A DNA stretch of 64,000 bases from an uncultured Eubacteriales bacterium (GCA_902764285.1 CACWVN010000022.1:1446-65445), one strand, 5' to 3'; shown: positions 19,136-38,133, numbered from the stretch's first letter. Notes: a model not told the origin generated them from the letters alone. Program-made: numbers and translations.

Positions 19136-19161
19136 TGCCAATCCTGCGAAACGCCTTGCTC

Positions 19162-20391: not shown

Positions 20392-20515
20392 TGATACTCC
20401 TCCTCTCAAGTTGTGAAGACTTCTATCCCCACGACTGTCGAAGAGGGTCCCTGTAGATATTATACCATACAGGGACCGTTTTGTGTGAGGATTAGGTCGA
20501 TTTTTACACATTTAT

Positions 20516-20716
20516 TTAGATGGAATATGCCTTTTCGATGTATTCATCCAGCTTTCTACGCTTAATCAAGCGGCGGGTGCCGTTCCACAGCACGAACGGA
20601 CAACGTTGATCATCGCTCATTTTGCGCAGCTTATTGATACCAATGCCGGAATAAGCCGCAGCCTCCTCCAGCGTCAGGTTACTCTTTTCCCAGACAGGAA
20701 CCATCTTTCTTTCCAT
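20516..20716 (-). CDS. excisionase / helix-turn-helix DNA-binding protein
   Basis: 66-aa ORF with an AGGAGG ribosome-binding site and an LTLEEAAAYSGIGINKLRKM helix-turn-helix, immediately upstream of the integrase. Confidence 0.7.
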   Translation of the reverse strand: MERKMVPVWEKSNLTLEEAAAYSGIGINKLRKMSDDQRCPFVLWNGTRRLIKRRKLDEYIEKAYSI

Positions 20717-20772
20717 TGATTCACCTCCTTCTTGCAAATAATAATACACTGTAAACATACTGTACCGTGTGT

Positions 20773-22092: not shown

Positions 22093-22139
22093 CGCGCTGA
22101 TCGTTCTCTTGATTTTCTATCACATCCTTTCGCCGCGCA

Positions 22140-22300
22140 GCGGCGGCCTTTGTTACTTTCTGCGAAAGTAACGCAAAAGCACTTTTGACAGCCTTCGTCC
22201 ATCAAAAGTGCTATTGCGCTCTCCGAGGGGGCTATCAGGGGCGCTGCCCCTGCCGCCTGCGGGCGGCGTACCCCGGCAGGACTGCCCTTTGAAAAGGGCA
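22140..22300 (-). promoter_or_regulatory. candidate oriT / relaxase promoter region rich in inverted repeats
   Basis: GTTACTTTC-TGC-GAAAGTAAC (22152-22172), an 11-bp stem AGCACTTTTGA...TCAAAAGTGCT (22178-22212), and CAGGGGC-GCT-GCCCCTG, all directly upstream of the MobV gene. Confidence 0.4.
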
Positions 22301-22491
22301 TCCTACGACCTCGCCTAAACTTCATTTGCTGCCGCGCCGTAACGCTTTTCTGCCCTGATTTCAGCATGGACGATCATAGCTGCGTCCTGCTGAAATCTTC
22401 CGTTCGGAAAACCTGACCTGCTGGCTTCCTCACGGGCAAAAGCGTTACATCTTCCGGCAGCTTCGGCATCCCCGGCAAACCGCGAAGGGTT

Positions 22492-22530
22492 TGCCGTAAA
22501 TGCCGTAAATGGAGTAAATGCCGTAAATGG
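22492..22530. repeat. 9-bp iteron-like array (TGCCGTAAA units), copy 1
   Basis: About four tandem units lying 12 nt downstream of the DUF3987 stop codon. Confidence 0.7.
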
Positions 22531-22541
22531 AAAATACGGCA

Positions 22542-24134
22542 TCACTCCGAGGACTCGTACACCGCTGGATTCACCAGCACCAGTATGTCCGGTCGGCGTC
22601 CCGGCGTGGGTTGCGTGTTCGCGTCTGTCTGCAATATGTAGCCGCAGCTTTGCAGCAGCTCCAGCGTCGGGTATAAATCCTCTGACTTCTTGAAGAACTT
22701 TCCCCGACACAGCTTCGCCAGCTCCCAGCGTTTGATCGAAGTGATCCTGTCCTTTTTCAGCTTTCCCAGCACGAACTGCGCTTTCTTGATGGAAAGATCA
22801 TTCCCCATCATGGAGTAGGCATAAGCCGAATGTGCCAGGAAATACCGTCCGATCTCAATAGCCCGCCGCATGGTATCGGAGGAGATTTCCACGTCCTCCC
22901 TGTCCGGCTCCGCGACGTGCAGCAGACCGGCGATCCGCAGCACCGCGCCGATGTACTTACTGGCCCAATCCGAAATCATCTGTCCCTCACCGGCCAGATA
23001 GATTTCATGTTCATGGAAGTGATGGGCGATCACATCCGTGGCATGAGGCGTGAGCGTCAGCACCGTGGGCTTGTCCGGCTTTGGAATCGCCATGAGCCGA
23101 TAGATCATCTCCTTGTAGGCCGTTCTGATTTCTGCTGGTATCTCCGGCGTACAGAACCGCCTGCCGCCGATCATGGACGGCGGCGAGGCGTACAGAAACC
23201 GGGCGATCAAGCCCCGTCCCGCCATCGTCGCGTTGGACATGATCTCGTCCAGGACCACCGGCTGAATGGTCAGGATCGCGGACAGCGCCGGATTCGGGAT
23301 GTACTCCGGCTCCCTTCCCAGCCGATCTACCCGAATCGCGTCGCCGCAGTGTCCTTTCAGCCATACATCGATGTTGACGCGGTTGTTGTACCGCCCCGCC
23401 ATGATGTCGAAGATGCCGCCTTCCGTGGAGATCACCGACAGCACGCCGTCGTTGTTTGCCAGCAGGTTGGTCAGAGCTTCGCTGGAACAGTCGTCCGCGA
23501 AAAAGCGCACTGGCTTCACGACGGGCATCTCCTCAAGCTGGGCCTCCATGTGCTGAAGCTCCAGCTCCAGCATTTCATCCATACTGTGCCGCAGCTTCTC
23601 CTGCAGGCCGGAGATATACCGTTCCAATGATTCCCGCTCCTGTCGGTTCCGGCGAATCTCCGTCTGCCGTCCCTCGTTGAACTCCCGTTCGTAGTCGTAT
23701 AGGAACTGCATCATGTCCCGCATGACGCTGGACTTGCGCTCGCCGGGCGGCGCGATGACCACCGTGTAGAGGCTCAACGGCTCCCGATAGCCGGGCGTGC
23801 CCTCCACGACGTATTTCCCTTGCAGGCAGACCGCCAGCACGCCCAGTCCGATCACCGCCGCCATGTCCACGGCGGTCTGGCTGTGCTCCGCGACGGCCCG
23901 CACATAGTCGCGCAGGACGGTGGGCAGACAATCAACGGGAAACGGTGGCAGGTTCTCTTCCTGCCCTTTGAGTGGTACGAGCGGCTGAAACCGTCTTTCA
24001 GTCGGCGGGCTTGCCGCTGCCGCTTCAACTGCGCCGGGTGGTTCTACGGCATTTGCGGCATTTACTCCATTTACGGCATTTACGGCAACACTGTGCGCGG
24101 GAGAGGGCGTTGTCGCGTTATATTCTCCCGCCAT
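22542..24134 (-). CDS. DUF3987 domain protein (putative replication/primase-associated ATPase of mobile elements)
   Basis: The LPPFPVDCLP...AVAEHSQTAVDMAA...VVIAPPGERKSS pattern is typical of DUF3987 proteins. A GGAGG ribosome-binding site favours the start at 24134 (MAGEY). Confidence 0.65.
   Translation of the reverse strand: MAGEYNATTPSPAHSVAVNAVNGVNAANAVEPPGAVEAAAASPPTERRFQPLVPLKGQEENLPPFPVDCLPTVLRDYVRAVAEHSQTAVDMAAVIGLGVLAVCLQGKYVVEGTPGYREPLSLYTVVIAPPGERKSSVMRDMMQFLYDYEREFNEGRQTEIRRNRQERESLERYISGLQEKLRHSMDEMLELELQHMEAQLEEMPVVKPVRFFADDCSSEALTNLLANNDGVLSVISTEGGIFDIMAGRYNNRVNIDVWLKGHCGDAIRVDRLGREPEYIPNPALSAILTIQPVVLDEIMSNATMAGRGLIARFLYASPPSMIGGRRFCTPEIPAEIRTAYKEMIYRLMAIPKPDKPTVLTLTPHATDVIAHHFHEHEIYLAGEGQMISDWASKYIGAVLRIAGLLHVAEPDREDVEISSDTMRRAIEIGRYFLAHSAYAYSMMGNDLSIKKAQFVLGKLKKDRITSIKRWELAKLCRGKFFKKSEDLYPTLELLQSCGYILQTDANTQPTPGRRPDILVLVNPAVYESSE
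24045..24087. repeat. 9-bp iteron-like array, copy 2 (inverted orientation)
   Basis: About five units (TACGGCATT). It is the reverse complement of copy 1 with 35/36 matches, and lies inside the 5' coding region of the DUF3987 gene. Confidence 0.7.
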
Positions 24135-24790
24135 GTTCTGAACCTCCGATTGTCGAATGGTCGTGTTCTTTTCGTTCAAGTATTGTCAACCTCCAAAAGT
24201 TTTACTTTTCATTTGGCGGCTGCTGTGCTATACTATTCTTGCAACGGGATAGCAAGCGCGGCAGCCGCCGCGCGGACTGTCTTTCAAAACGCTCTTGTCT
24301 GCCAGGACGAGAGCTTTTTGTTTTTATCCGCTGCCTCGTTGATGCTGAAACCAGCTTTGTATTCTCCCATTGCGTCACCTCCTTCCGCTGAGAGGATAGA
24401 CTTATCCCTTGGTGTGATTTTTGCTCCGTTCTTCCCACCCGCATCTGGCCGATGCCCACAGGCTTTCGCCTCCCCGCTCCCGCCGGGCTGTCCCCATTGC
24501 GTGATCCGCTTTCGCGGGCTGTGGCTGGACAGGAGTATCATTATCCCCATCATGCGTCCTGGCGATCAGGCCCTGCCGCGGACCCGACTGGCACCTCCGT
24601 GGATCGCTCCCCGCTTGTCAGCGGATCGTCGCGCCGGGATGCCTTCGCTCGGCATGATGGGAACGTAGGTTGGAGAACCTTATGAAGTTGTCTGTGATGA
24701 TGAACTCTACTGTTCATTATCACAGCTTGCATTATAATGTACATCTGTGTTCATGTCAAGAAGAAATGAGCAGTTACGCACATATTTAAC

Positions 24791-24819
24791 TTGATATTTG
24801 CATTACAGCCGTATATAAT
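24791..24819 (+). promoter_or_regulatory. sigma-A type promoter of the XRE regulator gene
   Basis: TTGATA, a 17-nt spacer, then TATAAT. The TTGCATTA motif recurs at 24727 and 24798. Confidence 0.45.
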
Positions 24820-24861
24820 GGAATCAGCGAAGAAACGGCACGAAACGGGGAGGAACGACCC

Positions 24862-25416
24862 ATGACGATAGGCGAGAAGATCAAGCGGGTACGCAAGTTC
24901 CGCAAGATGACGCAGGCGGAGCTGGGCACGGCGGTTGGCCTGGGAGAGAACGCCCAGAATCGCATCGCCCACTACGAGCGCGGCACCCGCGTCCCGCAGA
25001 AGGAGCTGCTGGACAGGATGGCGGAGGTGCTGGACGTGAACCGCTATATGCTCTATGATCTGACCGGGCAGAATAACAGCGAGTTCATTCAGATGATGTT
25101 CTGGATCGAGGAAGTCAATCCCGGTATCTTTAAGCTGTTCCAGCTCCAGAAGTTCCCCGGCGAGAAGTGCAACGAAAGCGACGATCCGGGCGTGTACTAT
25201 CACGACACCGACAATTGGCCCGCGCACCCGCCCGTGGGTATGTGGTTCTCCGGCGGCATCCTCAACAGCTTTATGAAGGAATGGCTGCTCCGCATGGAAG
25301 AAAAAAAGGCTGGCCTGATCTCCAAGGAAGAATACTTCGAATGGAAGATCAATTGGCCGGATACCTGTGACGACTGTGGGAAGTTTGAACCGAAGAAGCA
25401 GTGGAGAAAAGTATAA
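24862..25416 (+). CDS. XRE family helix-turn-helix transcriptional regulator
   Basis: N-terminal IGEKIKRVRKFRKMTQAELGTAVG helix-turn-helix plus a ~110-aa C-terminal domain of unknown function. Confidence 0.75.
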   Translation: MTIGEKIKRVRKFRKMTQAELGTAVGLGENAQNRIAHYERGTRVPQKELLDRMAEVLDVNRYMLYDLTGQNNSEFIQMMFWIEEVNPGIFKLFQLQKFPGEKCNESDDPGVYYHDTDNWPAHPPVGMWFSGGILNSFMKEWLLRMEEKKAGLISKEEYFEWKINWPDTCDDCGKFEPKKQWRKV

Positions 25417-25560
25417 AAAAGTGATGACATGGCTCCCGGAAATAATGCCGGGAGTTTGTCATGCAGTCTGAGAGATTTTTTGTTAATTTATTATGAATCG
25501 CTCCTAAATGCAATTCTGTAATATGACTCAATTGTATTATGCGTGAAAGGGGGGATGAAC

Positions 25561-26073
25561 ATGGAGCTGTCTCCGGCGCGCAGAGACGGTGTAATGGACG
25601 CTATGAAGCGGTATTCATCCATGGTCTATCGCCTGGCCTACGCGCGGACGCGCAATCATGCCGATGCGGAGGATATCTATCAGGAGGTGTTCCTGAAGCT
25701 GGCGAAGGCCGACATTTCCTTTGAGGATCAGGAACACGTGAAGGCGTGGCTGCTGCGGGTGACGGTCAATTGTTCGGTGAATTTCTTTCGGAGCGCCTGG
25801 CGGCGACATGTTCAGACGGTCGAGGCGCTTCCGGAGAGAGCCTCTCCATTGATTGACGATGCTCGCTATGAATCGCTGAACCGGGCATTGGACAGCTTGC
25901 CCGCCCGCTACCGCGCCGTCATACATCTATATTACTATGAAGAAATGTCCGTGGATGAAATATCGGCTGTATTAAACACCAAGCCCGCTACGATCCGCTC
26001 CCGCCTCGCGCGGGGCAGGGAACGACTGAAGCGGGAACTGACGCAGAACAAGGAGGCGAATCCGAATGCTTAA
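25561..26073 (+). CDS. ECF-type RNA polymerase sigma factor
   Basis: Region 2 (AEDIYQEVFLKL) and region 4 (YYEEMSVDEISAVLNTKPATIRSRLARGR) are both present. Confidence 0.8.
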   Translation: MELSPARRDGVMDAMKRYSSMVYRLAYARTRNHADAEDIYQEVFLKLAKADISFEDQEHVKAWLLRVTVNCSVNFFRSAWRRHVQTVEALPERASPLIDDARYESLNRALDSLPARYRAVIHLYYYEEMSVDEISAVLNTKPATIRSRLARGRERLKRELTQNKEANPNA

Positions 26074-27382
26074 AGACGAATACAAGGCCATCTACGATCG
26101 GATTCAGCCCAGCCGATCATTAGAAGCTGAAACGGAGGCTCAGATTATGGCACACTTTGATGGAAAGAAACTGGTAAAGCCCATCAGCCGGACCGCGGTC
26201 ATCGCCATCGCTCTGGCGGTGCTGCTGGTGGGGACGGCTATCGCGGCAACGTTGCAATCCAATATCCTGTCGAACCTGTTCCGCGGCAGGACGCCCAGCC
26301 CGGAGGCGGAGGCCGCGCTGGTTCGGGATGCAGGGCAGGTGTCCGACGCAGGCATCACCTTGAAGCTGGACGAGTACCTGGCGGATCAGAATACACTGAA
26401 TCTGTCTTGGACGGTCACCTCCGAACGGGACGAGCCCGTCTACTACGTCACCTGGGCGGAGGTCGACGACCACGGACTGACGGAGGCGGACGAAGCGCAG
26501 GGCTATGTGCCCGGCTTCCCCTACGGCAGCAGCGACGAGAGCATCGGCGACAACGCGCTGGTGCGCCTGGCCCCGGGTGCGAACGCCTATACCAGCGATA
26601 TGTCCCAGGGCTGGGCCCACGGCATCGACCGTCCGCTGACGGCGCGGGTATTTGTTCGGGCCTACACCACGGATCTTGTCATGAGGCAGACGGACTTTCG
26701 CGCCCCGGAGCTGTACTGTATGGAGCCCGGCGACGCAGCGAGCGCCGTGGTCAGGGACATCGAAGCCGCCGGCGGCATCCCCATGGCCTGCAACCTGCCG
26801 CTGTGCTATGTGGGCAGCTACGACGCCTATCAACAGGCGCTGGGCAATGGCACCGAGCCGGAGGAGATCTGCGACGCGCTGGCGGCATCCGGCCTGTTCC
26901 AGCCGCTGAAGGATTTGACGCTTGAAGTGGAAATTGCCGAACCAATCGATACCGCCGGCTTTGAATTGGGCGAGCCGCAGACCTTCGAGCTGCCCGGTAG
27001 GACGGTCGAGCTGAAAGCCATGAAGTTTGACATCGCCTCCACGTTGATCCGGTATGACGTCATTCTGGACAGCGACACGGACGCGAATGCCGCGACGTGT
27101 TGGTATTTGGTTGCAGGCCCGGATGGAAAGGTGAAAAATGTGGAGTGGTCGCTGAGCCTGAGTGGAAGCGAAGTGGAAACCATCGAGCACGACGGCAAAT
27201 CCTGCACCGTAATCCATTATGACCTTGGCAGCGATTCGCCGGTGACCGACCTGCCGGAAAGCCTGACCTTCATTCCGGTGAGCGATCTTCCCCGGCAGGA
27301 GGGCGAACCCTCGACGACCTACTGGCAGCGCGTCGCCGACCAGGCAAAGAAGGAGGATTGCTTTACTGTAAAACTGAAGTAA
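26066..27382 (+). CDS. anti-sigma factor-like membrane protein (DUF4179 type)
   Basis: Overlaps the sigma-factor stop. Has a single TM segment (AVIAIALAVLLVGTAIAA) and a large extracytoplasmic domain. Confidence 0.6.
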   Translation: MLKDEYKAIYDRIQPSRSLEAETEAQIMAHFDGKKLVKPISRTAVIAIALAVLLVGTAIAATLQSNILSNLFRGRTPSPEAEAALVRDAGQVSDAGITLKLDEYLADQNTLNLSWTVTSERDEPVYYVTWAEVDDHGLTEADEAQGYVPGFPYGSSDESIGDNALVRLAPGANAYTSDMSQGWAHGIDRPLTARVFVRAYTTDLVMRQTDFRAPELYCMEPGDAASAVVRDIEAAGGIPMACNLPLCYVGSYDAYQQALGNGTEPEEICDALAASGLFQPLKDLTLEVEIAEPIDTAGFELGEPQTFELPGRTVELKAMKFDIASTLIRYDVILDSDTDANAATCWYLVAGPDGKVKNVEWSLSLSGSEVETIEHDGKSCTVIHYDLGSDSPVTDLPESLTFIPVSDLPRQEGEPSTTYWQRVADQAKKEDCFTVKLK

Positions 27383-27718
27383 GGTCCTCGCACGTCTATC
27401 AATGCCTCGTTGCGAATGCATCGAGGCATGATACATGTACTGAGACACAGCCTTTAAAAATCCTTTTTACCAGTTGCAACATTGTTATCACAATATCTCT
27501 GTGTTATAATGTAGTGAACAGTTTCCTATTTGACGAGTTGTAATGTTTCTGCAGTTGATATGGTGGCACCGATCATGCCATCAAATAAGAAACGTATACC
27601 AGTGTGGGATGCTGTCTAGTAGCAGATTGACTGGGAGGGAATGTAATGAGTATCCATGATTTGGTGTAAACACATCGGGAAATTGCGTAACAATACAACT
27701 GAAACATAAGTTCTTATT

Positions 27719-28666
27719 ATGGAGGTGTTGGAATTGTATGGTATAAAACATATTCTTTCGCTGGTACTCATTGTTATGCTGCTCTCCTGCCCGGCTTACG
27801 CGATGACGGTACAAGAAGCCAAGGAAGCCGTGCTGACAAACGATCCCAAAGCAGCCAATGCCAAACAGTATTGGATGAACCAGTCCTCCGAAACGGACGG
27901 CATGTGGGTAGTATATGCCACCGGCATTGACAAATCGACGATGGATTTCGAAGGCGGAGCCTGGTTCGTTACTCCAGATCAAGCGGTATCCTTGGGATAT
28001 ACGCAATCGCTTAGCAGCTGGGACTTCTTCTCTTGTGAACCGCAGCCGCCTGTACCTGATGATTCAGATCAATCAAACGCCGCCGTCTGGCCCGCCTCAT
28101 ACGTCGCCCAAGGGCCGGAACTTATGGTCAGCAAGACCGATCATCTAAACGCTTGGAGGCTCGACCCCGCAAGCCATCTTCCTCAAAGGGTGGATACCGG
28201 AAAGCTGATTGCCATTGACAGCGAATATGGCCAGCTTCAGGGAATGGTAAAAGCACAGGACTGCAACTATGCCTTCCTTGTGATCGAAGGGGACGCGCTG
28301 CTGCAAATCGCAGCGACGCCGATAGAGGAAGCCATTGTGCGCAAATTCCCCGACGGATCAAAGCTGCTGGACCAGCTGTCTGCGCAGGGCTATGCCTTTA
28401 CCGGCTTCCTCTATCGCGCCGCCGTGCCCGGAAGCGTCGAAAAACTCAATGACCTTCCGAACGCCGCAGGCACCATTGCCGTCAATATGGAAAAGGACGG
28501 CCAGCCGTGGCATACCTATCTCTATTATTCTCTCGGAAAGGCGCTGAACTATATCGACGGCTCAGATTGGGGAAGCGAGGATGAACTGTGGATCGCTGCA
28601 TTCGAGGGCAAAGCATCCGACAGATTGGATGTCGGATTGGAAACGGTGGAAACTGTGATCCAATAA
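27719..28666 (+). CDS. secreted hypothetical protein (paralog of 44746-45609)
   Basis: Has a signal peptide and shares blocks with the chromosomal ORF (GMWVVYATG, LNAW, LLQIAATPIEEA, GYAFTGFLYR, DVGLE). Confidence 0.6.
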   Translation: MEVLELYGIKHILSLVLIVMLLSCPAYAMTVQEAKEAVLTNDPKAANAKQYWMNQSSETDGMWVVYATGIDKSTMDFEGGAWFVTPDQAVSLGYTQSLSSWDFFSCEPQPPVPDDSDQSNAAVWPASYVAQGPELMVSKTDHLNAWRLDPASHLPQRVDTGKLIAIDSEYGQLQGMVKAQDCNYAFLVIEGDALLQIAATPIEEAIVRKFPDGSKLLDQLSAQGYAFTGFLYRAAVPGSVEKLNDLPNAAGTIAVNMEKDGQPWHTYLYYSLGKALNYIDGSDWGSEDELWIAAFEGKASDRLDVGLETVETVIQ

Positions 28667-28863
28667 GGCAGTCATTGTATGGAATACAAAAGAGTTTGAA
28701 AGAGAGCCTATCTCATGCGTCAATTAATGCCTCGGTGCAAATGCGTCGGGGCATGCAAGCTTATGAAACCGCATCATAGATGACTACAACATATACCCGA
28801 GGGGCATGGCCAACGCCGTGCCCCTATTTAGCAACATTTTTATATGAACTTTTGATTTGCCTC

Positions 28864-28908
28864 TTGACATATATAGATAATCGATATATAATTGATATAT
28901 AGATAATC
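28864..28908 (+). promoter_or_regulatory. promoter with direct-repeat operator upstream of the PadR gene
   Basis: TTGACA (28864-28869), a 17-nt spacer, then TATAAT (28887-28892). The 14-bp direct repeat ATATATAGATAATC occurs at 28869 and 28895. Confidence 0.5.
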
Positions 28909-28929
28909 TATATAAAGGAGAGCGATATA

Positions 28930-29274
28930 ATGTCCATAGACCGTAAACTGATGATGGGGAACACGGATATGCTGCTCTTGAAGCTGCTGGCTCAGGAGGA
29001 CATGTACGGCTATCAGATCATTGATGAGCTTCGCAAGCGCTCGAATCATGTATTTGACATGAAAGCGGGAACGCTGTATCCGCTGCTGCACCATCTGGCT
29101 GAAAAGGGCTTTCTTACCACCTACGAAAAGAATGTCGGCGAGGTGAGGGTTCGTAAGTACTATCATCTGACCCGGAAGGGAGCGGATTATCTGGCTGAGC
29201 GGGAACAGGACTGGCGTATCTTTACGACTGCCGTACAGGGTGTGCTTAGAGGTGATGGTTGTGTTCTGGCCTAA
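28930..29274 (+). CDS. PadR family transcriptional regulator
   Basis: The LLLKLLAQEDMYGYQIIDEL...GTLYPLLHHLAEKGF pattern is typical of PadR regulators. Confidence 0.85.
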   Translation: MSIDRKLMMGNTDMLLLKLLAQEDMYGYQIIDELRKRSNHVFDMKAGTLYPLLHHLAEKGFLTTYEKNVGEVRVRKYYHLTRKGADYLAEREQDWRIFTTAVQGVLRGDGCVLA

Positions 29275-30583
29275 CGATTACCTGGATCGGGTTGCCCGGC
29301 AAATACGTGTTGTGCGCATCCGTGAACCGCTGACGGCGGAGTTGAAGGATCATATGCTTTCACAGAAGGCGGATTACATGGCTTCAGGGTTGTCTGAGGA
29401 TGAGGCCGAGCGCAGAACCACGGAGGATATGGGAGACGCGCTGCTGGTCGGCGGAGAACTGGACGCGGCGCACCGCCCCGCAACCCAGTGGAAGGGTATT
29501 GCGATTACGATGTTGCTTTTGGCCCTTGGATTGGGGATACAGGTGGTCAACGGCAGGCTGGCAGGTTGCTCCATCATGGATACACTGACCGGCAACCGTG
29601 CGCTCTTTACCGCGTTGGCCCTCGCACCGCTGTGCCTGCTTGCCCTGACGGATTATACGCATTGGATTCGATGGAGCCTGCCAATCATGGTCGCTTGGCT
29701 GATTTGTATGGCGCATCGGCTGATTCCGCTTCAACGCCTTATCGCATACGACCCAGCGATATTCCGTGTTCTGGTTCCACAGGTCCTGGCAGTTTCGCTT
29801 CCCATGGTCACAGCGCTGCTGGCCTGTCGCCTGCGCGGACGCGGTCAGGGTGCGTTTGCGGTGGGCCTATTCCCAGCCGCTTCCATGATGCTGCTGTGCG
29901 GGGAATACCGATATACGGGATTTGATATTGCACCTTGCATGCTGATGGTGGCCCTCGGGCTGTTAGTGCTGACTCTGGCCGTTCGGGATGGATTCTTCAA
30001 GATTTCCCGGCGTTGGGCTTATGTGCTGCTGATCAGCCTGATTGGCCTTGCGGTCATTTTCTCCGCTGCGCGGTTTAATCCTCAACCCAGCGACGGGGAT
30101 ATGCGCCGACTGATTGGCGCGATTCTCCGTGGTGCCAGACCTTTTGGACACTCGGCGAATGTCGCAGCCATCTCAGACGCTTGGAGGCGCTTTATTGACA
30201 TGGGTTATGGCATGGCGGATTACATGCTGCCGGGCATCGTAGCCTATGTCGGCTGGGTACCCTGTACGCTGCTGACTCTGGGTCTGGCTGCCCTGCTTAC
30301 TTGGTGTGTCCGCCGCTTCTCGCGCCTCGAAAACCGCATGGGCGCACTGTTGGGGATGACGGCTGCTCTGACGATGTGCCTTCAGGCGGTTATCTATGTG
30401 CCCGCTTCCTTTGGCCTGATCGGCGAACACCTCTGCCTGCCGCTTCTGTCCTACGGCCATGCCATTCTGATGGTGGACGCCGCCCTGGCAGGCATGATGC
30501 TGGGCGTATTGCGCGGAGAAACGCTGCCGGAGCCGGCTGTAGCTTTTCAGCGCTCGTGTCTTGTGATGACAAAACAAGCATAA
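29255..30583 (+). CDS. polytopic membrane protein with a PadR-associated N-terminal prefix domain
   Basis: Overlaps the PadR stop. The N-terminal soluble segment (ELKDHMLSQKADYMASGLSEDEAERRTTEDMGD) is followed by about 9-10 hydrophobic helices. Confidence 0.6.
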   Translation: MVVFWPNDYLDRVARQIRVVRIREPLTAELKDHMLSQKADYMASGLSEDEAERRTTEDMGDALLVGGELDAAHRPATQWKGIAITMLLLALGLGIQVVNGRLAGCSIMDTLTGNRALFTALALAPLCLLALTDYTHWIRWSLPIMVAWLICMAHRLIPLQRLIAYDPAIFRVLVPQVLAVSLPMVTALLACRLRGRGQGAFAVGLFPAASMMLLCGEYRYTGFDIAPCMLMVALGLLVLTLAVRDGFFKISRRWAYVLLISLIGLAVIFSAARFNPQPSDGDMRRLIGAILRGARPFGHSANVAAISDAWRRFIDMGYGMADYMLPGIVAYVGWVPCTLLTLGLAALLTWCVRRFSRLENRMGALLGMTAALTMCLQAVIYVPASFGLIGEHLCLPLLSYGHAILMVDAALAGMMLGVLRGETLPEPAVAFQRSCLVMTKQA

Positions 30584-30690
30584 ACACTTTTTTTCGTGTC
30601 GACGCTATGATTTCTTCCCGTCATAGCGTCTTATTAGTGCATATGCGAATGGGACAGGGTTTCATGAAATCCGAAATGGGAGTGAACCGC

Positions 30691-31149
30691 ATGACCGAGA
30701 GTGTGTTTTCCGAAAGGGTCCGGGCGTTGCAGGGACCGCTGTGGCGCATCGCCTGGGCGATCCTGCGTAACGGCGCGGATTGCGACGATGCCATCCAGGA
30801 GGCGTTGCTTCGGGCCTGGAATCGCATCGGCAGCCTTCGGGATGAAACGGTGTTTGACGCCTGGCTGATGCGCATATTGGTCAACGAGAGCAAAGACCTT
30901 CTGCGCCGTCGCGCTCGGCATCCGCAGACGTCGATGGAAGCCGCTCCGGAGTTGGCCGCGCCTGTAGAGAACACCGCTTTGCGCGACGCGATATTCGCCC
31001 TGCCGCTGTCGCTGCGCCTGCCGCTGCTGCTGCATTACATGGAGGGCTACAGCGTGAAGGAGACAGCGCGGATGCTGCACCTGCCGGAGACGACGGTTCA
31101 TTGGAGACTGCACGCCGCACGCAAGAGAATACGGGACGAATGGAATTGA
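30691..31149 (+). CDS. ECF-type RNA polymerase sigma factor (second copy)
   Basis: Region 2 (CDDAIQEALLRAW) and region 4 (YMEGYSVKETARMLHLPETTVHWRLHAARKR) are present. An alternative start lies at 30664. Confidence 0.75.
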   Translation: MTESVFSERVRALQGPLWRIAWAILRNGADCDDAIQEALLRAWNRIGSLRDETVFDAWLMRILVNESKDLLRRRARHPQTSMEAAPELAAPVENTALRDAIFALPLSLRLPLLLHYMEGYSVKETARMLHLPETTVHWRLHAARKRIRDEWN

Positions 31150-31164
31150 CGGGAGGTTGAAAGC

Positions 31165-32778
31165 ATGACGCGCAAGGAATTACAGAATCTGTTTCCTCCG
31201 GTTCCCGGTCACTTCCTCGACCGCATAGACCAAACCATGGAGGAAATTGAAGCCATGAATACGAATAGCATCAAGAGAATACGCCGGGTGAGCCGCCCGG
31301 TACTGATCGCGGCCATCGTTTTTGCACTGACTGCCGCCACGGCTTTGGCGGCGGTTCTGGGCCACCACGCACTGAAGGACGCGCTGAACGCATCCGGGCT
31401 GGAAGATGTCGCCGAACAGGTAAAGGATATCCAGGCGACAGACGCCTCGGACGGCTTCTGCCTGACGCTGGATGAGGCCGTGTGGGAGGGCGAAAAATTG
31501 TATTTATCCTGCACCGTCGCTGTGCCGGAGGATGGGAATACCTACCTCTATAGCCTGATGCTGCCGACGCTGAACGGCGGGCACGTCCCAAGTAATCTGG
31601 CCATATACTTCGATCAGCCCTTCGGGCCCTTCGTCTACCCCATCGGAGGCGCTTTCCCCACTCAGGCTACGCTGATCCTGCCCCTGGAATCGGATTCAAG
31701 CATGCTGTCAGGTGGGCCGGTGGAGCTTGGGCTCCGGGCAGACTTTTATACTACGAATCGCAAATTAGCTCCCATACCGGATGAAGAAAATATGGATGAG
31801 TATCTGGATGCGACGCGGGACGCCCTCGTCTACAAATCCTCCGACGTCCTCTATTACGCTGAAGGCAGCAACCCCGGCATTCAATTGACCGCTTATCGGG
31901 AGGTAGCCGATATGGACTGGCAGGGAAACGTGGATGGCTGGCTGTCCAGCGGCGCGGAACCGGAGAAAATCGCAGCAACCGGGCTGATCGACCTTCTGTC
32001 CACCCGGGAATTGCAGGTGCCTTTGAGCGAGGACATGCTTTCGGGCACCGTGATGAACAACTTGGATGTCCGTGATTTTACTTGGAAAGACGTAGCTTTC
32101 ACCGTTGAGCGCTTCCGCATGACCCATTTCAGCATGGAGCTGGTGCTGCATGCGGAGCAGAACGGCATTGCCAGGGACAACGCCTCTTGGGATGATAGGG
32201 ATGATGCCGAGCTCCAATTCCCGGAACGCCTGCACAACGCCAGGTTTGAACTGGTGAACGGCGACGGCAGTCCTCTCATGGACATCTACGGTGAGACCTG
32301 CACGGACTGCCGCATTTCGGACGCACCGACGGGCGGCTACACCGTGAAAATCACTGCAGAGGCATTATTTCCTGATGAGCCGGAACCGTTCATACTGTTG
32401 CCGCAGTATTGGGTGTCCGTGGAGAACGAGGACAATGAGAAGGAACTGGTGTCCGATACAGATGATCCCATTGTCACGCTGACGCCTGTGTACAGCGAGG
32501 AAGTCCATGAGACTGAGCTCGAAGAGCAGGAACGGTTTGAAGCCATTCGCGACTGGAAGCAGGGAGATGCAGCACAAACCGTCTACGCCACCGATCAGGG
32601 CAGCTATTATCACTACAAGCCTGATTGCAGTGGCATGATGGGTTCAAAGGCAGTTTCCATTGAGGATGCGCTTGCCGCCGGGAAACCCGCCTGCCCCGTC
32701 TGCATTGGCGGCCACAACAGTCGTGTGAGCACAGTAAATGACTCCGAAGCCTCAGGCCCATGGTCATCAGATAACTGA
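31165..32778 (+). CDS. anti-sigma-like membrane protein with a C-terminal Cys-rich motif
   Basis: Single TM segment (PVLIAAIVFALTAATALAAV), a large extracytoplasmic region and a C-terminal YYHYKPDCSGM...CPVC motif. Confidence 0.55.
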   Translation: MTRKELQNLFPPVPGHFLDRIDQTMEEIEAMNTNSIKRIRRVSRPVLIAAIVFALTAATALAAVLGHHALKDALNASGLEDVAEQVKDIQATDASDGFCLTLDEAVWEGEKLYLSCTVAVPEDGNTYLYSLMLPTLNGGHVPSNLAIYFDQPFGPFVYPIGGAFPTQATLILPLESDSSMLSGGPVELGLRADFYTTNRKLAPIPDEENMDEYLDATRDALVYKSSDVLYYAEGSNPGIQLTAYREVADMDWQGNVDGWLSSGAEPEKIAATGLIDLLSTRELQVPLSEDMLSGTVMNNLDVRDFTWKDVAFTVERFRMTHFSMELVLHAEQNGIARDNASWDDRDDAELQFPERLHNARFELVNGDGSPLMDIYGETCTDCRISDAPTGGYTVKITAEALFPDEPEPFILLPQYWVSVENEDNEKELVSDTDDPIVTLTPVYSEEVHETELEEQERFEAIRDWKQGDAAQTVYATDQGSYYHYKPDCSGMMGSKAVSIEDALAAGKPACPVCIGGHNSRVSTVNDSEASGPWSSDN

Positions 32779-32931
32779 GGTTCCGATAATGTATCATTAT
32801 AGTATTCTCTTTTGGGCTGTTCCATCGTGGACAGCCCTTATTCATCATTATCCTCTTTACATCATATCTTATTTGTGATAGAATACTATCAGTAAAAGCC
32901 AGATTAGCCTGTGATGTGAAAGGAGATCCCT

Positions 32932-33186
32932 ATGATTATCAAGCCCTCTTCTGCGTTGCGGAACAATTACAGCAGCATATCCACCATCGCGAAGGAGACT
33001 CAGGAACCGGTCTACATTACTGTGAACGGCGAAGGTGACGGGGTTTTCATGGACATGGTGGCGTTTGAGCGGCGGGAGCAACTGCTCAACCTGCGAGCGC
33101 GCATCCTTCAAGCAGAGGAAGATCGTCTTCGCGGCGCCAAAACCATGAGCATTTCCGAGGCACGGGAGGCGTTGAGAAAGCAATGA
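32932..33186 (+). CDS. type II antitoxin (Phd/YefM-like)
   Basis: 84-aa ORF (ALRNNYSSISTIAKETQEPVYITVNGEG) with a 4-nt overlap onto the toxin gene. Confidence 0.7.
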   Translation: MIIKPSSALRNNYSSISTIAKETQEPVYITVNGEGDGVFMDMVAFERREQLLNLRARILQAEEDRLRGAKTMSISEAREALRKQ

Positions 33187-33518
33187 GAGTCGAAATCCTC
33201 CCCTCTGCCTGGGAAGGGCTGGCACGGATCAAGTACCGTGTGCAGGCTGATTTCGGTGAGGATGTAGCTCTGAGTGTGGCTAATCGCATCCTTGACAGCT
33301 TGGAACGCTTGGAGCAGTTCCCAGATTCCGGCTCTATGACACCCGACCCTTGGCTGAACAACATGGGCTTCCGCATGGTCATCAGCGACAAGAGGAATGT
33401 ATCCATTTTCCGCAAGGTAGGCGAGAGCATTTTCGTTTACATCATTGCGGACACCCGAACAGAGTACACCAAGGTATTCAAGGATATGTTGTTATCTGAT
33501 CCAGGGGTTATCGGATAG
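33183..33518 (+). CDS. type II toxin (RelE/ParE family)
   Basis: 111-aa ORF, translationally coupled to the antitoxin, with a ParE/RelE-like pattern (LERLEQFPDSG...FRMVISDKRNVSIFRKV). Confidence 0.65.
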   Translation: MRVEILPSAWEGLARIKYRVQADFGEDVALSVANRILDSLERLEQFPDSGSMTPDPWLNNMGFRMVISDKRNVSIFRKVGESIFVYIIADTRTEYTKVFKDMLLSDPGVIG

Positions 33519-33636
33519 TAGACGAAAGTAATAAGCAATTGTAGAAAGAACAAATTGCTTCGATGTATACAAGATATATGAAATAACACTTGAGAGAGCT
33601 AAGGCTGACTACTGGTCATCTGAGGGAGAAAACGTT

Positions 33637-34896
33637 ATGGGAAACTCTCATTCATGGATTCGGAAGATGTATTATATACTTTCTTTATCTATGCTTTTGT
33701 TTATTTGTGGAGCCATAGTATCTATCAGTACTATTCAAACTCGGTTTGAAAAGTGTTGGATTGTTTTCCCTATAATTATTTATCTTGTGCTATATTGTAT
33801 AAAGCATTTTTCAAGAAGAACAAGCCTCTCTCGAATTCCCCTTGAAATAGTTGCGATTCTCGCTTCTATCTGCCTTTTCCTATTTCAAAAAGTGGAAGTT
33901 ATGCAACAATTTATTATTCAACATATTGAAGTGTTGGCCTTTTTCATTATTCTCAATTTCCTATTAAGCATAACATATTTTAAAAAAATAAGCGAGATAG
34001 ATACTATTCCATCTGAGGAAACAAAGGATAACAATCCATTGTTTAATATTTTCTATCTCAACACATCTAAAGCCCATGAAATAGCGATGCTTATTGATAA
34101 TCGTATTATGAAAACAGTTGAAAAAGAGCAGACTTCCGAAGCAATAATAAAACATCAGAATGCTATAAGACTTGGGAAAAGCGACTATCTTGCCTCAAAT
34201 GTTGAATATGCATCCGAGGATAGCACAAAGAAAAGAGTATATGAAAGCTTCGATGTCAAAAACACTAAATCAATAATGCTGAAAAAAATCTATGAAACTG
34301 TTGCAGGAAAAAGAATTAGTCAAGATCTTGGCGTAGGTCAATTAATTCTCTTTAAAGACATCAAACTAAAGCAACTCAATGTAGATGATACTGTGATGAT
34401 ACTTAAAATATTGCAAGAAAGCAAACTAAGGAATCAAGCTAACGATAGTATCGAAATTAACTTTAACAAGATGATGGAGAAAATGCTGGATGATTTTACG
34501 ATTGACTATTCTTTCACTTATTCCATGGGGAATGGAGACAAGAGTCCTTGTCTGATTCAACTACCATATAGATCCATAAGCAACTTTGAAAACGGATACC
34601 AACATAATGATTTACAGTTAGGACAACTCAGTCTAATTGGAATTTATAGAGGCAAAATCGACTTCAAACAACAAGAAAGCATTTCTTCGAGATTTCTCGA
34701 ATTGATATCAGACTCAATTAACCAAGAAATGCAGATAGAGACGCCTGGCATTGGAATGAGGCTAAGTGAAAAGAATACAATAGTAAATCAAGTTCCTTTC
34801 GAGTTTAAGCATAAGAAGCTAACAGAGGAATACCATCTTATTGACGTGATCGCGATAATACAGGAGATTCGTTTCAAGGAGACAAATAATGAGTAA
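33637..34896 (+). CDS. hypothetical protein: four N-terminal TM helices plus a ~300-aa soluble domain (candidate defence-module component A)
   Basis: AT-rich 419-aa ORF with hydrophobic segments at roughly aa 12-34, 40-56, 67-84 and 93-113. I recognise no catalytic motif. Confidence 0.6.
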   Translation: MGNSHSWIRKMYYILSLSMLLFICGAIVSISTIQTRFEKCWIVFPIIIYLVLYCIKHFSRRTSLSRIPLEIVAILASICLFLFQKVEVMQQFIIQHIEVLAFFIILNFLLSITYFKKISEIDTIPSEETKDNNPLFNIFYLNTSKAHEIAMLIDNRIMKTVEKEQTSEAIIKHQNAIRLGKSDYLASNVEYASEDSTKKRVYESFDVKNTKSIMLKKIYETVAGKRISQDLGVGQLILFKDIKLKQLNVDDTVMILKILQESKLRNQANDSIEINFNKMMEKMLDDFTIDYSFTYSMGNGDKSPCLIQLPYRSISNFENGYQHNDLQLGQLSLIGIYRGKIDFKQQESISSRFLELISDSINQEMQIETPGIGMRLSEKNTIVNQVPFEFKHKKLTEEYHLIDVIAIIQEIRFKETNNE

Positions 34897-36475
34897 GAAG
34901 CTATACCTTTACCATCCTGAAAGACTACATGAACTTCAAGGATCTTTGCAAGAATACTCTTTTTGCAGCATTTCCTCATTCATTTATCATTATGAAAGCG
35001 TTGAAAAGCTGATGGCGGAAGGGGACGATATTGATAATATAGTTGTAGATCTTTCAAGTTTGATTAAAGACGGGAATTTCTTTCGAGTTTTCACTGAACG
35101 GTATATTATGGCTCTTGCTGATCAAGGAGAAGAAGTTCATTTCTGCCTTATGCAGGACTTGTTTGATGCCTTTAATAATCAATATCCGTATCTGTTCGAT
35201 AATGAGGATATCGACAAGAAATTCTGTAAGTTTGAAGACTCTCAGATAGAAGACAAGTATCATTTCAAACCTTTTCAACAAGTACCTTTGTATATTTATG
35301 ACGCGCAGGAAATAGTGAATTCCATCATTCATGATAAGCATATAACATCCTTAGCCTGTCTTATTGACGATTGGGAGGGTGTAATCCTAAAATACAATCT
35401 TTCCGATATCATTATGCGATTAATGAAATCCGAGATTGAGTATATTGATATTTCTTCTGCACTTCGAACGATGAAGCTTCGAAGTGATCTAGTTTTTCAA
35501 TTCGAAATCCTTTTTCAGAAGATTGGTGAATCGACAAGTGTAAAGTACTGTGCAGATAGCAGTACTTCGGAAAATGCAATCGTTCTATTTCCTTTTGTTT
35601 TTTCGGAATTATGCGAAATGAGCATGATTGATGTAGCAAATCAAGATGCTCTTGATGAGCCAACCAAAGTTGATATCAATACTCTCGTGCAACAGGTCCA
35701 GCAGCAAGGAGATAAAATCTGTTCATTGCTAAAAGGACATAGTGTTTTTAAGACCGATTTCAGAGAAAGCCTACTGAAATTCTCTTTCTTCAATGTGATG
35801 AAAGAACAGAGTATCTTTTCGATCTTAATCTGTGGGGAATCTGGTATTGGAAAAACCGAGTTTGCTAAAATTGTTTCCAAGATCATTTATCCGGAGGAGT
35901 CATTAATTAAGATAAATTTTGGCAATTATTCAACAGAAGGTGTTCTGAATAGTCTTATCGGTTCGCCTTTGGGATATGTTGGTAGCGAAGAGGGAGGTGA
36001 ACTGATCAATAAAATAGCTTTATCTAGATCGAAAGTTATACTTATTGACGAGTTCGAAAAAGCCACAATGGGTGTATATAATTTCTTCTATGAATTATTG
36101 GAAGATGGTAAATTCACAGATAGGCATGGAATAGAGCATGATTTAAATGGATACATTATCGTGTTTACTTCTAACATGACTCAAAAACAATATCAAAGGC
36201 AAATTCCAGACTCTCTAAAATCAAGGTTTGATATGGTTTACTATTTTATCGAGTTATCACAAGAAGAGAAACAATCCTATATTATTGATACTGCAAATAA
36301 GCTTATTGATAAACTCAACATTCATTTTGGTGTTATAGTAGATATTAAAACAATAGAAAAAGAATTGAACGAACTAACAAAATATAAGAATCTTAGGGAT
36401 ATGAAAAAAGAAATTGAAGGGCTAGTTTTCAGTGCATTTATAAAACGGTTAGATGAGCAATCGAATAAACAATAA
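34889..36475 (+). CDS. AAA+ ATPase with a ClpA/ClpB D2-like module and a ~300-aa unknown N-terminal domain (candidate component B)
   Basis: 8-nt overlap with the upstream ORF. Walker A GESGIGKT (35834-35857), Walker B VILIDEFEKA, and LIGSPLGYVGSEEGGEL and GKFTDRHG...IIVFTSN segments collinear with the ClpB D2 domain. Confidence 0.75.
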   Translation: MSKKLYLYHPERLHELQGSLQEYSFCSISSFIYHYESVEKLMAEGDDIDNIVVDLSSLIKDGNFFRVFTERYIMALADQGEEVHFCLMQDLFDAFNNQYPYLFDNEDIDKKFCKFEDSQIEDKYHFKPFQQVPLYIYDAQEIVNSIIHDKHITSLACLIDDWEGVILKYNLSDIIMRLMKSEIEYIDISSALRTMKLRSDLVFQFEILFQKIGESTSVKYCADSSTSENAIVLFPFVFSELCEMSMIDVANQDALDEPTKVDINTLVQQVQQQGDKICSLLKGHSVFKTDFRESLLKFSFFNVMKEQSIFSILICGESGIGKTEFAKIVSKIIYPEESLIKINFGNYSTEGVLNSLIGSPLGYVGSEEGGELINKIALSRSKVILIDEFEKATMGVYNFFYELLEDGKFTDRHGIEHDLNGYIIVFTSNMTQKQYQRQIPDSLKSRFDMVYYFIELSQEEKQSYIIDTANKLIDKLNIHFGVIVDIKTIEKELNELTKYKNLRDMKKEIEGLVFSAFIKRLDEQSNKQ

Positions 36476-36518
36476 GAATAGAGCAGAGTAAGATGGTTGC
36501 CTTTACTCTGCTCTATTC
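36476..36518 (+). terminator. strong hairpin after the AT-rich module
   Basis: Perfect 16-bp stem GAATAGAGCAGAGTAA ... TTACTCTGCTCTATTC starting directly after the TAA stop. Confidence 0.55.
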
Positions 36519-36599
36519 TACACCACATTTCCACACCGCAACTCACTCAGGGACCCATCTTCGACGGTTTTTAAGAAAATTGGTGTAAATCTGGTGTAG
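36518..36599. repeat. GGTGTA(A/G) repeats, distal end
   Basis: CTACACC at 36518-36524, GGTGTAA at 36582-36588 and GGTGTAG at 36593-36599. The block TTGGTGTAAATCTGGTGTAGTA resembles the one near 19056. Confidence 0.5.
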
Positions 36600-36629
36600 T
36601 AACCGGCCTCTGCCAGTATCATTGTGCCT

Positions 36630-36656
36630 GAAAAGCCCCACACCGCAGGGCTTTTC
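36630..36656 (-). terminator. lysS terminator (element-derived side)
   Basis: GAAAAGCCC-N9-GGGCTTTTC located just downstream of the lysS stop. Confidence 0.55.
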
Positions 36657-36666
36657 GGCCTCCACA

Positions 36667-38133
36667 TCACTCCAGCGGTTTCATCGTCGGGAACAGCAGC
36701 ACGTCGCGGATGCTGTCGGAATTGGTCAGCAGCATCACGAGCCGGTCCACGCCGAAGCCCAGTCCGCCGGTGGGCGGCATGCCGTACTCGTAATCCACCT
36801 GGGCGCGGCTGGCGGGATCCAGCGCCTTGCGCTGGGCCACCTGCTTTTCGAAGCGGCCGCGCTGGTCCAGCGGGTCGTTCAGCTCCGAGAAGGCGTTGCC
36901 GAACTCGGTGGCGTTGATGAAGTACTCGAAGCGCTCGGTGAACATCGGGTCATCGCTCTTGCGCTTGGCCAGCGGGCTGATCTCCACCGGGTAATCGTAG
37001 ATGAAGGTGGGCTGGATCAGCTTTTCTTCCACAAAGGCGTCGAAGAACTCGGCCAGGATCGCGCCGCGGGTGGGCACCTCGGGCAGCTCCACGCCGTGGG
37101 CCTTGGCGGCGGCGATGGCGTCCTCGTCGCTCTTCCAGTCGGCAAAGTCCACGCCGCTGTACTTCTTCACGGCCTCCACCATGGTCAGCCGATCCCAGTG
37201 GCCGATGTCGATCTCGTGGCCCTGGTAGGGGATGACCAGCGATCCACAGACCTTCTGCGTCACGGCTTTCATCATGTCCTCCACCAGATCCATCATGCCG
37301 TGGAAATCGGTGTAGGCCTCGTAGAGCTCGATGGTGGTGAACTCGGGGTTGTGCTTGGTGTCCATGCCCTCGTTGCGGAAGATGCGGCCCACCTCGTACA
37401 CCCGGTCCAGGCCGCCCACGATCAGCCGCTTCAGGTAAAGCTCCGTCTCGATGCGCAGCACCATGTCCATGTCCAGCGTGTTGTGGTGGGTGTAGAAGGG
37501 CTTGGCGGCGGCGCCGATCTCAAACGGCGTCAGGATGGGCGTGTCCACCTCCAGATAGCCGCGGCCATCCAGGAAGGCGCGCAGTTCGCGCAGGATCCGG
37601 CTGCGCTTGACGAAGGTATCCTTCACCTCGGGGTTGACGATCAGGTCGACATAGCGCTGGCGGTAGCGGGTGTCGGTGTCGGTCAGACCGTGGAACTTCT
37701 CCGGCAGCGGGTGCAGGCTCTTGGTCAGCAGCTTCACCTCCGCGGCGTGCACGGAGATCTCGCCGGACTTGGTCTTGAACACCGTGCCGGCCACGCCGAT
37801 GATATCGCCGATGTCGAAATCCTTGAAATCGCGGTAGCTGTCCTCGCCCACGTCGTCCCGGCGGACGTAGATCTGGATCTGGCCGTCCGGATCCATCAGG
37901 TGGGCGAAGCTGGCCTTGCCCATCACGCGGCGGGAGAGCATGCGGCCCGCGATGCGCACAGCCTGTCCCTCCAGGGCGTCGTAATCGGAAATGATCGCGC
38001 CGGAGGTGTGGGTGCGGTCGTAGGTGGTGATCTCGTAGGGGTTGCGGCCCTGTTCGATGAGGGCGTTCAGCTTGTTCAGGCGGATCGCGTCCTGCTCGGT
38101 ATAGCCGGCGGGAGTCTGGTAGATCTGGGCCAT
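36667..38133 (-). CDS. lysS: lysine--tRNA ligase (class II)
   Basis: Full-length homology pattern including the FRNEGMDTKHNPEFTTIELY motif 2 region and YGMPPTGGLGFGVDRL motif 3. Confidence 0.9.
   Translation of the reverse strand: MAQIYQTPAGYTEQDAIRLNKLNALIEQGRNPYEITTYDRTHTSGAIISDYDALEGQAVRIAGRMLSRRVMGKASFAHLMDPDGQIQIYVRRDDVGEDSYRDFKDFDIGDIIGVAGTVFKTKSGEISVHAAEVKLLTKSLHPLPEKFHGLTDTDTRYRQRYVDLIVNPEVKDTFVKRSRILRELRAFLDGRGYLEVDTPILTPFEIGAAAKPFYTHHNTLDMDMVLRIETELYLKRLIVGGLDRVYEVGRIFRNEGMDTKHNPEFTTIELYEAYTDFHGMMDLVEDMMKAVTQKVCGSLVIPYQGHEIDIGHWDRLTMVEAVKKYSGVDFADWKSDEDAIAAAKAHGVELPEVPTRGAILAEFFDAFVEEKLIQPTFIYDYPVEISPLAKRKSDDPMFTERFEYFINATEFGNAFSELNDPLDQRGRFEKQVAQRKALDPASRAQVDYEYGMPPTGGLGFGVDRLVMLLTNSDSIRDVLLFPTMKPLE
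36676..36693. repeat. attR core (inside the current lysS 3' end)
   Basis: Identical 18-mer. lysS now ends ...FPTMKPLE-stop using element-derived sequence. Confidence 0.75.

Follow-up and report, generated by a model that had tools for sequence, protein, structure and literature searches.

Dodola and PDC-M37

The Dodola system consists of two genes, and in it DolA, a DUF6414 protein, is paired with DolB, a ClpB-like ATPase (Millman et al. 2022, as cited in PMC11514479), and its role in phage defence has been validated experimentally (PMC11514479; bioRxiv 10.1101/2024.10.22.618286). PDC-M37 is one of the 145 phage defence candidates in PADLOC-DB v2, which were derived by guilt-by-embedding from genes within BREX, DISARM, and type I restriction-modification loci; it is catalogued as cassette CAS_00135, FAM_01269>>FAM_01309 (Payne et al., bioRxiv 10.1101/2024.01.29.577857). 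Here, we describe a PDC-M37 locus in a 64,000-nucleotide stretch of DNA from an uncultured Eubacteriales bacterium (GCA_902764285.1, CACWVN010000022.1:1446-65445), referred to as the window, from whose first nucleotide positions are counted. The locus consists of two genes, termed A and B:

33637-34896, plus strand: gene A, open reading frame of 419 aa; PDC-M37A, membrane-anchored DolA-like protein
34889-36475, plus strand: gene B, open reading frame of 528 aa; PDC-M37B, single-ring ClpB-D2-type AAA+ ATPase
34877-34896, plus strand: coupling junction, with the Shine-Dalgarno sequence AAGGAG at 34877-34882, the ATG of B at 34889, and the stop codon of A at 34894-34896

The block formed by A and B is probably a translationally coupled antiphage cassette of the PDC-M37 type and, in evolutionary terms, a membrane-anchored and enlarged version of Dodola. 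In the literature searched, PDC-M37 is named only in a survey of the Bacillus cereus group, and neither a mechanism for PDC-M37 nor a link to Dodola or a description of a membrane anchor was found. What is added here is evidence linking PDC-M37A to DUF6414/DolA, the recognition that the anchor of A and an extension of the ATPase behave as independent modules, and the placement of the present copy as terminal cargo of a mobilizable element that targets lysS.

Membership in PDC-M37

The locus is a further member of the already catalogued candidate PDC-M37. Protein A matches the PADLOC profile for PDC-M37A (PDLC04601) with an expect value (E) of 2.6e-121 over residues 45-413 (profile positions 4-371 of 374), and protein B matches the profile for PDC-M37B (PDLC04605) with E 1.4e-141 over residues 1-520 (positions 1-514 of 518), i.e., both are full-length members. 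The long profile PDLC04601 already spans transmembrane (TM) helices 2-4 of the anchor described below. Gene order and strand are those of PDC-M37, and no structural difference sets the locus apart. A sequence-only reading of the window, made by a model, had considered either a Dodola-like system or a new pairing; the pairing is not new, as it is the one held in PADLOC-DB. The two genes themselves and their 8-nt overlap (ATGAGTAA) are present at the sizes given in that reading. AAGGAG lies 6 nt 5′ of the ATG of B, within the end of A, and this strong Shine-Dalgarno sequence together with the overlap makes translational coupling plausible.

The pairing is conserved. Among 27 genome loci retrieved with the A profile, B directly follows A on the same strand in 25; one of the two exceptions is located at a contig end and the other carries a truncated B. 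The same order was found in every plasmid and metagenome locus examined. The hosts all belong to the Bacillota and comprise, e.g., Lachnospiraceae, Oscillospiraceae, Clostridium, Paenibacillus, Veillonella, Gemella, and Peptoniphilaceae. One of the loci, L001 from an uncultured rumen Clostridiales metagenome-assembled genome (RUG12259), shows 99% identity and presumably represents the source. Carriage by phages was looked for with a set of patterns, none of which matched any of 50,697 phage records or IMG/VR. At locus L008, an intact A homologue is followed by a stretch (11250-11579 of that locus) in which only the first ~110 aa of B are detectable, suggesting a decayed or disrupted copy of the cassette.

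Relationship to Dodola

A Dodola locus on a plasmid of Latilactobacillus curvatus (L029) served as reference; its DolA matches DUF6414 (E 5e-35) and the PADLOC DolA profile (1e-87), and its DolB matches the PADLOC DolB profile (1e-137). Judged by the hidden Markov models that define Dodola, the A-B pair is outside the system, yet profile comparisons place it as a distant relative of both components. For B, the AAA+ module with its lid (residues 310-521) matches PADLOC DolB with E 1.4e-31 at positions 167-371 of 375, with an hhalign probability of 98.9%. The DolB profile leaves the N-terminal 300 aa of B uncovered, and the PDC-M37B profile fits the protein far better. For A, the link runs through short relatives of 261-330 aa that lack TM helices and align to A residues ~130-418 (hhalign E 3e-47). 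A short PDC-M37A from a Listeria plasmid matches PADLOC DolA over nearly its whole length (E 2.2e-5), and one of 50 short members matches Pfam DUF6414 at 9.8e-4. Compared by hhalign with the DolA family, the short forms reach E 6.9e-6 at 85% probability and the merged profile of long and short forms E 1.2e-5 at 81%, with a score of 45; 40 column shuffles yield at most 21.1, reversal of the profile yields 23.1, and comparison with an unrelated family 21.9. A core of the form F-x-N-x-Y-x3-D-L, followed by a hydrophobic strand ending in G, is invariant in both the A family and the DolA family. Moreover, DefenseFinder assigns to Dodola protein pairs of the B. cereus group that PADLOC assigns to PDC-M37 (PMC11811056, supplementary file 6). 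These profile comparisons lead us to place PDC-M37 and Dodola as branches within a single superfamily, a placement that bears out the suggestion in the sequence-only reading of a Dodola-like system: B is homologous to DolB, A appears remotely homologous to DolA through its short relatives, and the two annotation programs agree on the same pairs. The superfamily that thus links PDC-M37 to Dodola comprises ~300 clusters at 50% identity, most of them unannotated. For such loci, "PDC-M37 / Dodola-like candidate defence system" is a preferable annotation to the "hypothetical protein + ClpB/ClpC" of some sources.

The present cassette and Dodola share a two-gene operon with the dolA-type gene upstream, often overlapping the second gene (order and coupling are the same in the L. 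curvatus reference), a single-ring ClpB-D2-type ATPase in second position, and carriage on mobile elements of Bacillota. Despite this relatedness, several differences exist. A carries an additional 125-aa anchor of four TM helices and measures 419 aa, whereas the DolA family members found are 247-283 aa long, so that A is not the soluble protein of ~260-280 aa expected of a DolA. Similarly, B is about 150 aa longer than DolB (528 versus 381 aa), and its N-terminal 300 aa cannot be aligned to DolB. B also contains the full ClpB-type pore loop GSPLGYVGSEEGG, which is shortened in the L. curvatus DolB. As regards nomenclature, a structural paragraph in PMC11514479 seems to swap the two names, with "DolA" denoting a Clp-like hexamer and "DolB" an unassigned protein, which is the opposite of Pfam and PADLOC usage.

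The ATPase

34889-35788, plus strand: B residues 1-300, alpha/beta N-terminal region; no assigned family, secondary structure from the model
35801-36472, plus strand: B residues 305-528, AAA+ large and small subdomains; Pfam AAA_2
35834-35857, plus strand: Walker A, G316-x-SG-x-GKT323
35972-35983, plus strand: GYVG pore loop, G362-Y-V-G365
36038-36052, plus strand: Walker B, I384-LIDE388

Protein B contains a single AAA_2 stretch (Pfam, residues 308-439, E 1.9e-27), and in NCBIfam it matches best to the D2 halves of ClpB, ClpV, ClpK, and ClpA, with scores far under the family cutoffs. The motifs from which a ClpA/ClpB D2-type module had been predicted (GESGIGKT, VILIDEFEKA, GYVGSEEGG, and IIVFTSN) all occur in B and do not vary within the family. 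Across 28 homologues, invariant positions include Walker A, Walker B with D387 and E388, the pore-loop residues G362, Y363, and G365, the sensor-1 motif T427-S-N429, and the arginines R446 and R503. B thus has a D2-type module with an aromatic pore loop and a complete set of ATPase motifs. With the AlphaFold2 (AF2) model of B, whose predicted local distance difference test (pLDDT) score is 80, the top Foldseek matches are ClpC, ClpA, and ClpB at E ~1e-15. A homologue search with B gave more than 2,500 matches at E <= 1e-3, mostly ClpB-type AAA+ relatives, of which the best 120 were full-length.

B shares with the D2 ring of Clp proteins the AAA+ fold, Walker A and B, the GYVG loop, sensor-1, the arginine finger region, and sensor-2 within an LRD motif. 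Unlike ClpB, ClpA, and ClpC, it has one ring and gives no Pfam match to Clp_N, D1, the M-domain, or ClpB_D2-small. That B would consist of one module lacking a Clp N-domain and a middle domain had been proposed from sequence; neither of these domains, nor a second ring, is detected by Pfam or NCBIfam. Residues 1-300 contain no P-loop, give no Pfam match at E <= 10, and have no sequence relative in the PDB; residues 1-130 constitute an extension that is missing from short forms of B. A reading of this region as a degenerate D1 ring was considered and is not claimed here: Foldseek aligns the model to two-ring Clp chains over ~590 columns, but the template-modelling score relative to the query is ~0.41-0.45, no more than the D2 alone would give. 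ClpA and ClpX dock ClpP through an IGF/IGL loop; in B, direct reading of the sequence shows only ~12 residues between TSN and SRFD, which leaves no room for such a loop.

The resemblance to Hsp100 proteins raises the question of whether B is a stand-alone disaggregase conferring stress tolerance, as are the ClpK, ClpG, and ClpL proteins borne on plasmids and islands, with A as its membrane partner in quality control. Indeed, in NCBIfam and in structure B is matched best by Hsp100 disaggregases and unfoldases, ClpK and ClpG among them. However, B has neither the two tandem rings nor the N- and M-domains of these chaperones and scores 96 bits with the ClpB equivalog model, for which the cutoff is 1232; it is also obligately paired with a DolA-like gene, and its distribution is patchy, foreign, and tied to mobile elements. 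A chaperone function of this kind is very improbable.

The membrane-anchored partner

33637-34005, plus strand: A residues 1-123, four-helix TM anchor; hydropathy and AF2 helices, N-in/C-in predicted
34024-34893, plus strand: A residues 130-419, cytoplasmic DolA/DUF6414-related domain; family alignment and profile comparisons

In agreement with the sequence-only reading, which had described the first gene product as a 419-aa protein starting with four TM helices, hydropathy and confidently modelled AF2 helices (residues 4-35, 43-58, 69-95, and 97-123; pLDDT ~70-92) coincide. The four helices are retained in all long homologues, with W41 and P45 near-invariant. Over 30 homologues, the lysine plus arginine count is ~8.9 on the N-terminus, loop 2, and the segment following TM4, as compared with ~1.8 in loops 1 and 3. 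This distribution indicates an N-in/C-in topology in which the remaining 290 aa are cytoplasmic, so that the DolA-like domain and B share one side of the membrane.

The cytoplasmic domain is characterized by two invariant signatures, LFNxFYxNxSKxHEIxMLIDN and FENGYxxxDLQLG...GIYRG. No Pfam, NCBIfam, or PHROG family is matched by A, and searching the PDB by sequence and by profile gave no match to the A family; the family comprises 365 clusters at 90% identity and ~298 representatives at 50%, all unannotated. Weak signals hint that the DolA-like domain could contain a nucleic-acid-binding fold resembling the oligonucleotide/oligosaccharide-binding (OB) fold: the model of A gave Foldseek matches to SSB/OB proteins at a probability of at most 0.18, and there was one Pfam match to POT1; all of these are weak and to be taken as a lead only.

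Modular architecture

Relatives of the cassette occur in four architectures. The first, a four-TM A with a long B of ~515-530 aa, is found at 25 genome loci, including the present one. In the second, an A of 363 aa with 2-3 TM helices is combined with a short B of 382 aa (L042). The third consists of a soluble A of 313-320 aa and a long B of 506-530 aa (L041, L043, and L046), and the fourth of a soluble A of 261-268 aa and a short B of 385-400 aa (Listeria, Priestia, Halobacillus, and L044). Judging from these combinations, the membrane anchor is an optional module that is independent of the B extension. Co-variation of the anchor with the 130-aa extension of B, which would have implied docking of the two, was considered and rejected, as L041, L043, and L046 on the one hand and L042 on the other break it. 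The design is thus modular, with a conserved core of DolA-like domain and ClpB-D2 motor to which anchors and ATPase extensions are optionally added. The parts also differ in their rate of change: family identity is 20% in the TM block of A, 33-35% in the N-terminal 300 aa of B, 59% in the DolA-like domain, and 68% in the AAA+ module. Such a gradient is what one would expect were localisation or specificity determined by the variable parts and the actual work carried out by the conserved ones. At L046 (138-764 of that locus) and also at L047, A is preceded by a third gene, which encodes 208 aa and shares 8 nt with the start of A; the product of this gene, which has no TM helix and no recorded Pfam match, may be an accessory component.

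This modularity bears on the main rival explanation, an abortive mechanism in which the helices of A are a latent permeabilising effector that B restrains or, on sensing a phage, pulls open, with killing or arrest of the cell as the outcome. The conserved block of four TM helices with its near-invariant tryptophan and proline would suit such a toxin, as would a pulling motor with intact pore loops, the independent occurrence of a 2-3-TM anchor in the L042 lineage, and the position of the cassette next to a toxin-antitoxin pair (see below). However, many relatives, as well as Dodola, possess the same core without any TM helix, so that membrane damage is not the shared effector, and the TM block, being the least conserved part, fits an anchor better than a pore. 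We therefore regard a membrane toxin as unlikely. Since TM-less relatives including Dodola share the core, the anchor is most likely a localisation or tuning module rather than a universal effector.

Genomic context

18922-18939 and 36676-36693, no strand assigned: 18-bp direct repeat CGGTTTCATCGTCGGGAA; the right copy is the attR core and lies inside the lysS 3′ end
32932-33186, plus strand: Phd antitoxin; Pfam PhdYeFM, E 1e-10
33183-33518, plus strand: 111-aa ParE-like partner; ParE_toxin E 0.0033, below cutoff, 4-nt overlap with Phd

The A-B pair is the last cargo of a mobilizable element of ~17.8 kb (about 18940-36693) integrated in the 3′ end of lysS. At its left end, the element carries genes for a Tn916-type tyrosine integrase, a Mob_Pre relaxase, and a DUF3987 protein, followed by pairs of extracytoplasmic function (ECF) sigma factor and DUF4179 genes, Phd, and its weakly ParE-like partner. 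The attR proposed beside the module is confirmed by the right copy of the repeat. As for the neighbouring pair, which had been read as Phd/RelE, the antitoxin stands, while the partner is recognized only by the ParE_toxin match, which is sub-threshold.

Similar surroundings are found elsewhere. In the P0042 lineage, the pair directly follows a large serine recombinase at the end of a MobA/ParB/RepA_N element, and it also occurs on plasmids. A survey of neighbours covered 134 genes within three genes on either side of the pair at 25 loci. Mobile-element neighbours include serine recombinases, IstB, TnpV, and integrases; defence neighbours include Eco47II and other type II restriction enzymes, EcoRI methylase, BrxL, JetA/B/D, Ppl, an AbiEii-type AAA_21 protein, MADS, PDC-S05, and PDC-S23. 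Two further metagenomic loci are flanked by GmrSD and a HEPN protein. The homologues are thus found among mobile elements and defence genes and not in housekeeping operons, and, together with their regular pairing, this is in line with the proposal of a defence module.

The same context could be taken to mean that the cassette maintains its element, by addiction and post-segregational killing, or excludes rival elements, rather than defending the cell against phages. The pair is always found on or beside mobile elements, plasmids included; here it is terminal cargo near attR and the Phd/ParE-like pair, and in the P0042 lineage it comes right after the recombinase. Yet defence systems are typically cargo of mobile elements as well, the homologues adjoin GmrSD, HEPN, restriction-modification, BREX, and Wadjet genes, and Dodola, although a distant relative, protects against phages in experiments. 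Element maintenance or exclusion is accordingly quite improbable as the function of the pair.

In the L. curvatus reference (3093-3452 of that locus), Dodola likewise adjoins a toxin-antitoxin pair of the RelE/ParE type, and a RelE gene also precedes an AAA ATPase of Enterococcus (L030); the association with toxin-antitoxin genes may be recurrent.

Proposed function and mechanism

From the distant homology to Dodola and from the genomic context, we infer a candidate antiphage role for the PDC-M37 cassette. In the mechanism proposed here, A would be held in the membrane by its four-helix anchor and expose the DolA/DUF6414-related domain to the cytoplasm. B most likely forms a hexamer which, by analogy with established AAA+ biology, would thread polypeptides through its central pore by means of the GYVG tyrosines. 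Since a protease-docking loop is lacking, the expected outcome is unfolding or disassembly of proteins and not their degradation. The two proteins would assemble into a complex at the membrane's inner face, with A acting as adaptor or substrate of B. First, infection would be sensed through the fast-evolving parts, i.e., the N-terminal alpha/beta region of B and/or A. In a second step, B would use ATP to remodel a protein. This could be a phage protein recruited by the DolA-like domain, amounting to direct interference; alternatively, the target may be A itself, which would thereby be switched to an effector state. As the cassette encodes neither a nuclease, protease, or NADase domain nor any other effector domain, immunity would rest on ATP-driven protein remodelling; the architecture argues for this as the effector step over any known enzymatic killing activity. 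In a more specific version, which is speculative and rather improbable, the anchor would be more than a passive tether, and the cassette would be a membrane-resident immune unfoldase acting at phage genome entry, where its DolA-like domain, perhaps with the OB-like fold hinted at above, would capture a phage protein, either ejected or membrane-associated, for mechanical extraction or unfolding. If this unfoldase reading were true, ATP-driven unfolding that involves no nuclease, protease, or NADase would be a defence principle that, to our knowledge, has not yet been demonstrated for any system, and variants with and without TM helices would constitute a natural experiment for dissecting the mechanism of Dodola.

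Several points weigh against the assignment of the cassette to phage defence and to the Dodola lineage. PDC systems are stated by their source to be untested candidates (bioRxiv 10.1101/2024.01.29.577857). No Dodola mechanism was found in the literature searched, so the analogy lends no mechanistic step. On the side of homology, A itself matches neither DUF6414 (PF19952) nor PADLOC DolA at E <= 1, and its long-form profile is not significant when compared with an alignment of 28 DolA members (hhalign E 0.017-0.035); the link between A and DolA runs through the intermediates, with hhalign probabilities of 81-85% over ~100 core columns. The soluble domain of A is poorly modelled (mean pLDDT 63), a Foldseek search with the model returned no structural match (best E 0.4), and no effector chemistry can be named. 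As to context, the defence neighbours of the homologues were listed without comparison to a background rate. The present element contains no other system recognized by PADLOC; the pair is therefore mobile-element cargo here and not part of a multi-system island, contrary to the typical defence-island position that the sequence-only reading had assigned to it.

Composition and flanking signals

33519-33636, plus strand: AT-rich intergenic leader, GC content 0.36, with a GAGGGAG ribosome-binding site ahead of the ATG of A
36475-36491 and 36503-36519, plus strand: hairpin of 17 perfect pairs with an 11-nt loop, starting at the final base of the B stop codon

GC content is 0.331 in A and 0.340 in B, as opposed to 0.552 in the remaining element and 0.655 in the right-hand chromosome, which agrees with the much lower GC originally noted for the block. 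GC content at third codon positions (GC3) is 0.32-0.33 in both genes, compared with 0.92 in lysS and 0.65-0.70 in the integrase and Phd/ParE-like genes. Going by composition, the block is strongly foreign and was probably acquired horizontally. The Phd/ParE-like pair, with a GC3 of 0.65-0.67, is not part of it. Insertion of the AT-rich block as a separate unit was considered and rejected, as no direct or inverted repeats of at least 9 nt bound it.

The hairpin 3′ of B had been described as perfect and 16 bp long; it is perfect, with 17 pairs rather than 16. Its folding energy is -26.6 kcal/mol (z = -7.2 relative to shuffles), it lacks a U-tract, and it is likely a 3′ end or a stabilising structure. 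Consensus scans for promoters and terminators gave nothing above shuffles, including no convincing promoter in the leader (33519-33636), and no Rfam family was found within 32700-36800.

Further observations concern the element and its surroundings. Two pairs of an ECF sigma gene followed by a gene for DUF4179, a putative anti-sigma membrane protein, are located at 25543-27382 and 30634-32778; the first sigma gene is a putative one, and the second DUF4179 match is weak (E 0.004). Terminator hairpins of the lysS type stand beside both copies of the 18-bp repeat (18888-18916 and 36629-36657). Short repeats of the type GGTGTA..GGTGTAG are found just inside the element ends, at 19060-19093 on the left and at 36518-36534 and 36583-36599 on the right, where they make up imperfect inverted arms of 17 nt; these repeats are possible arm-type integrase sites. 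To the left of the element, positions 1-18900 have a GC content of 0.556 (sub-blocks range over 0.48-0.54 within 1-9 kb and 0.58-0.64 within 10-18 kb), similar to that of the element and well under the 0.655 of the chromosome on the right, and this region may be another island or a tandem element beside the lysS site.

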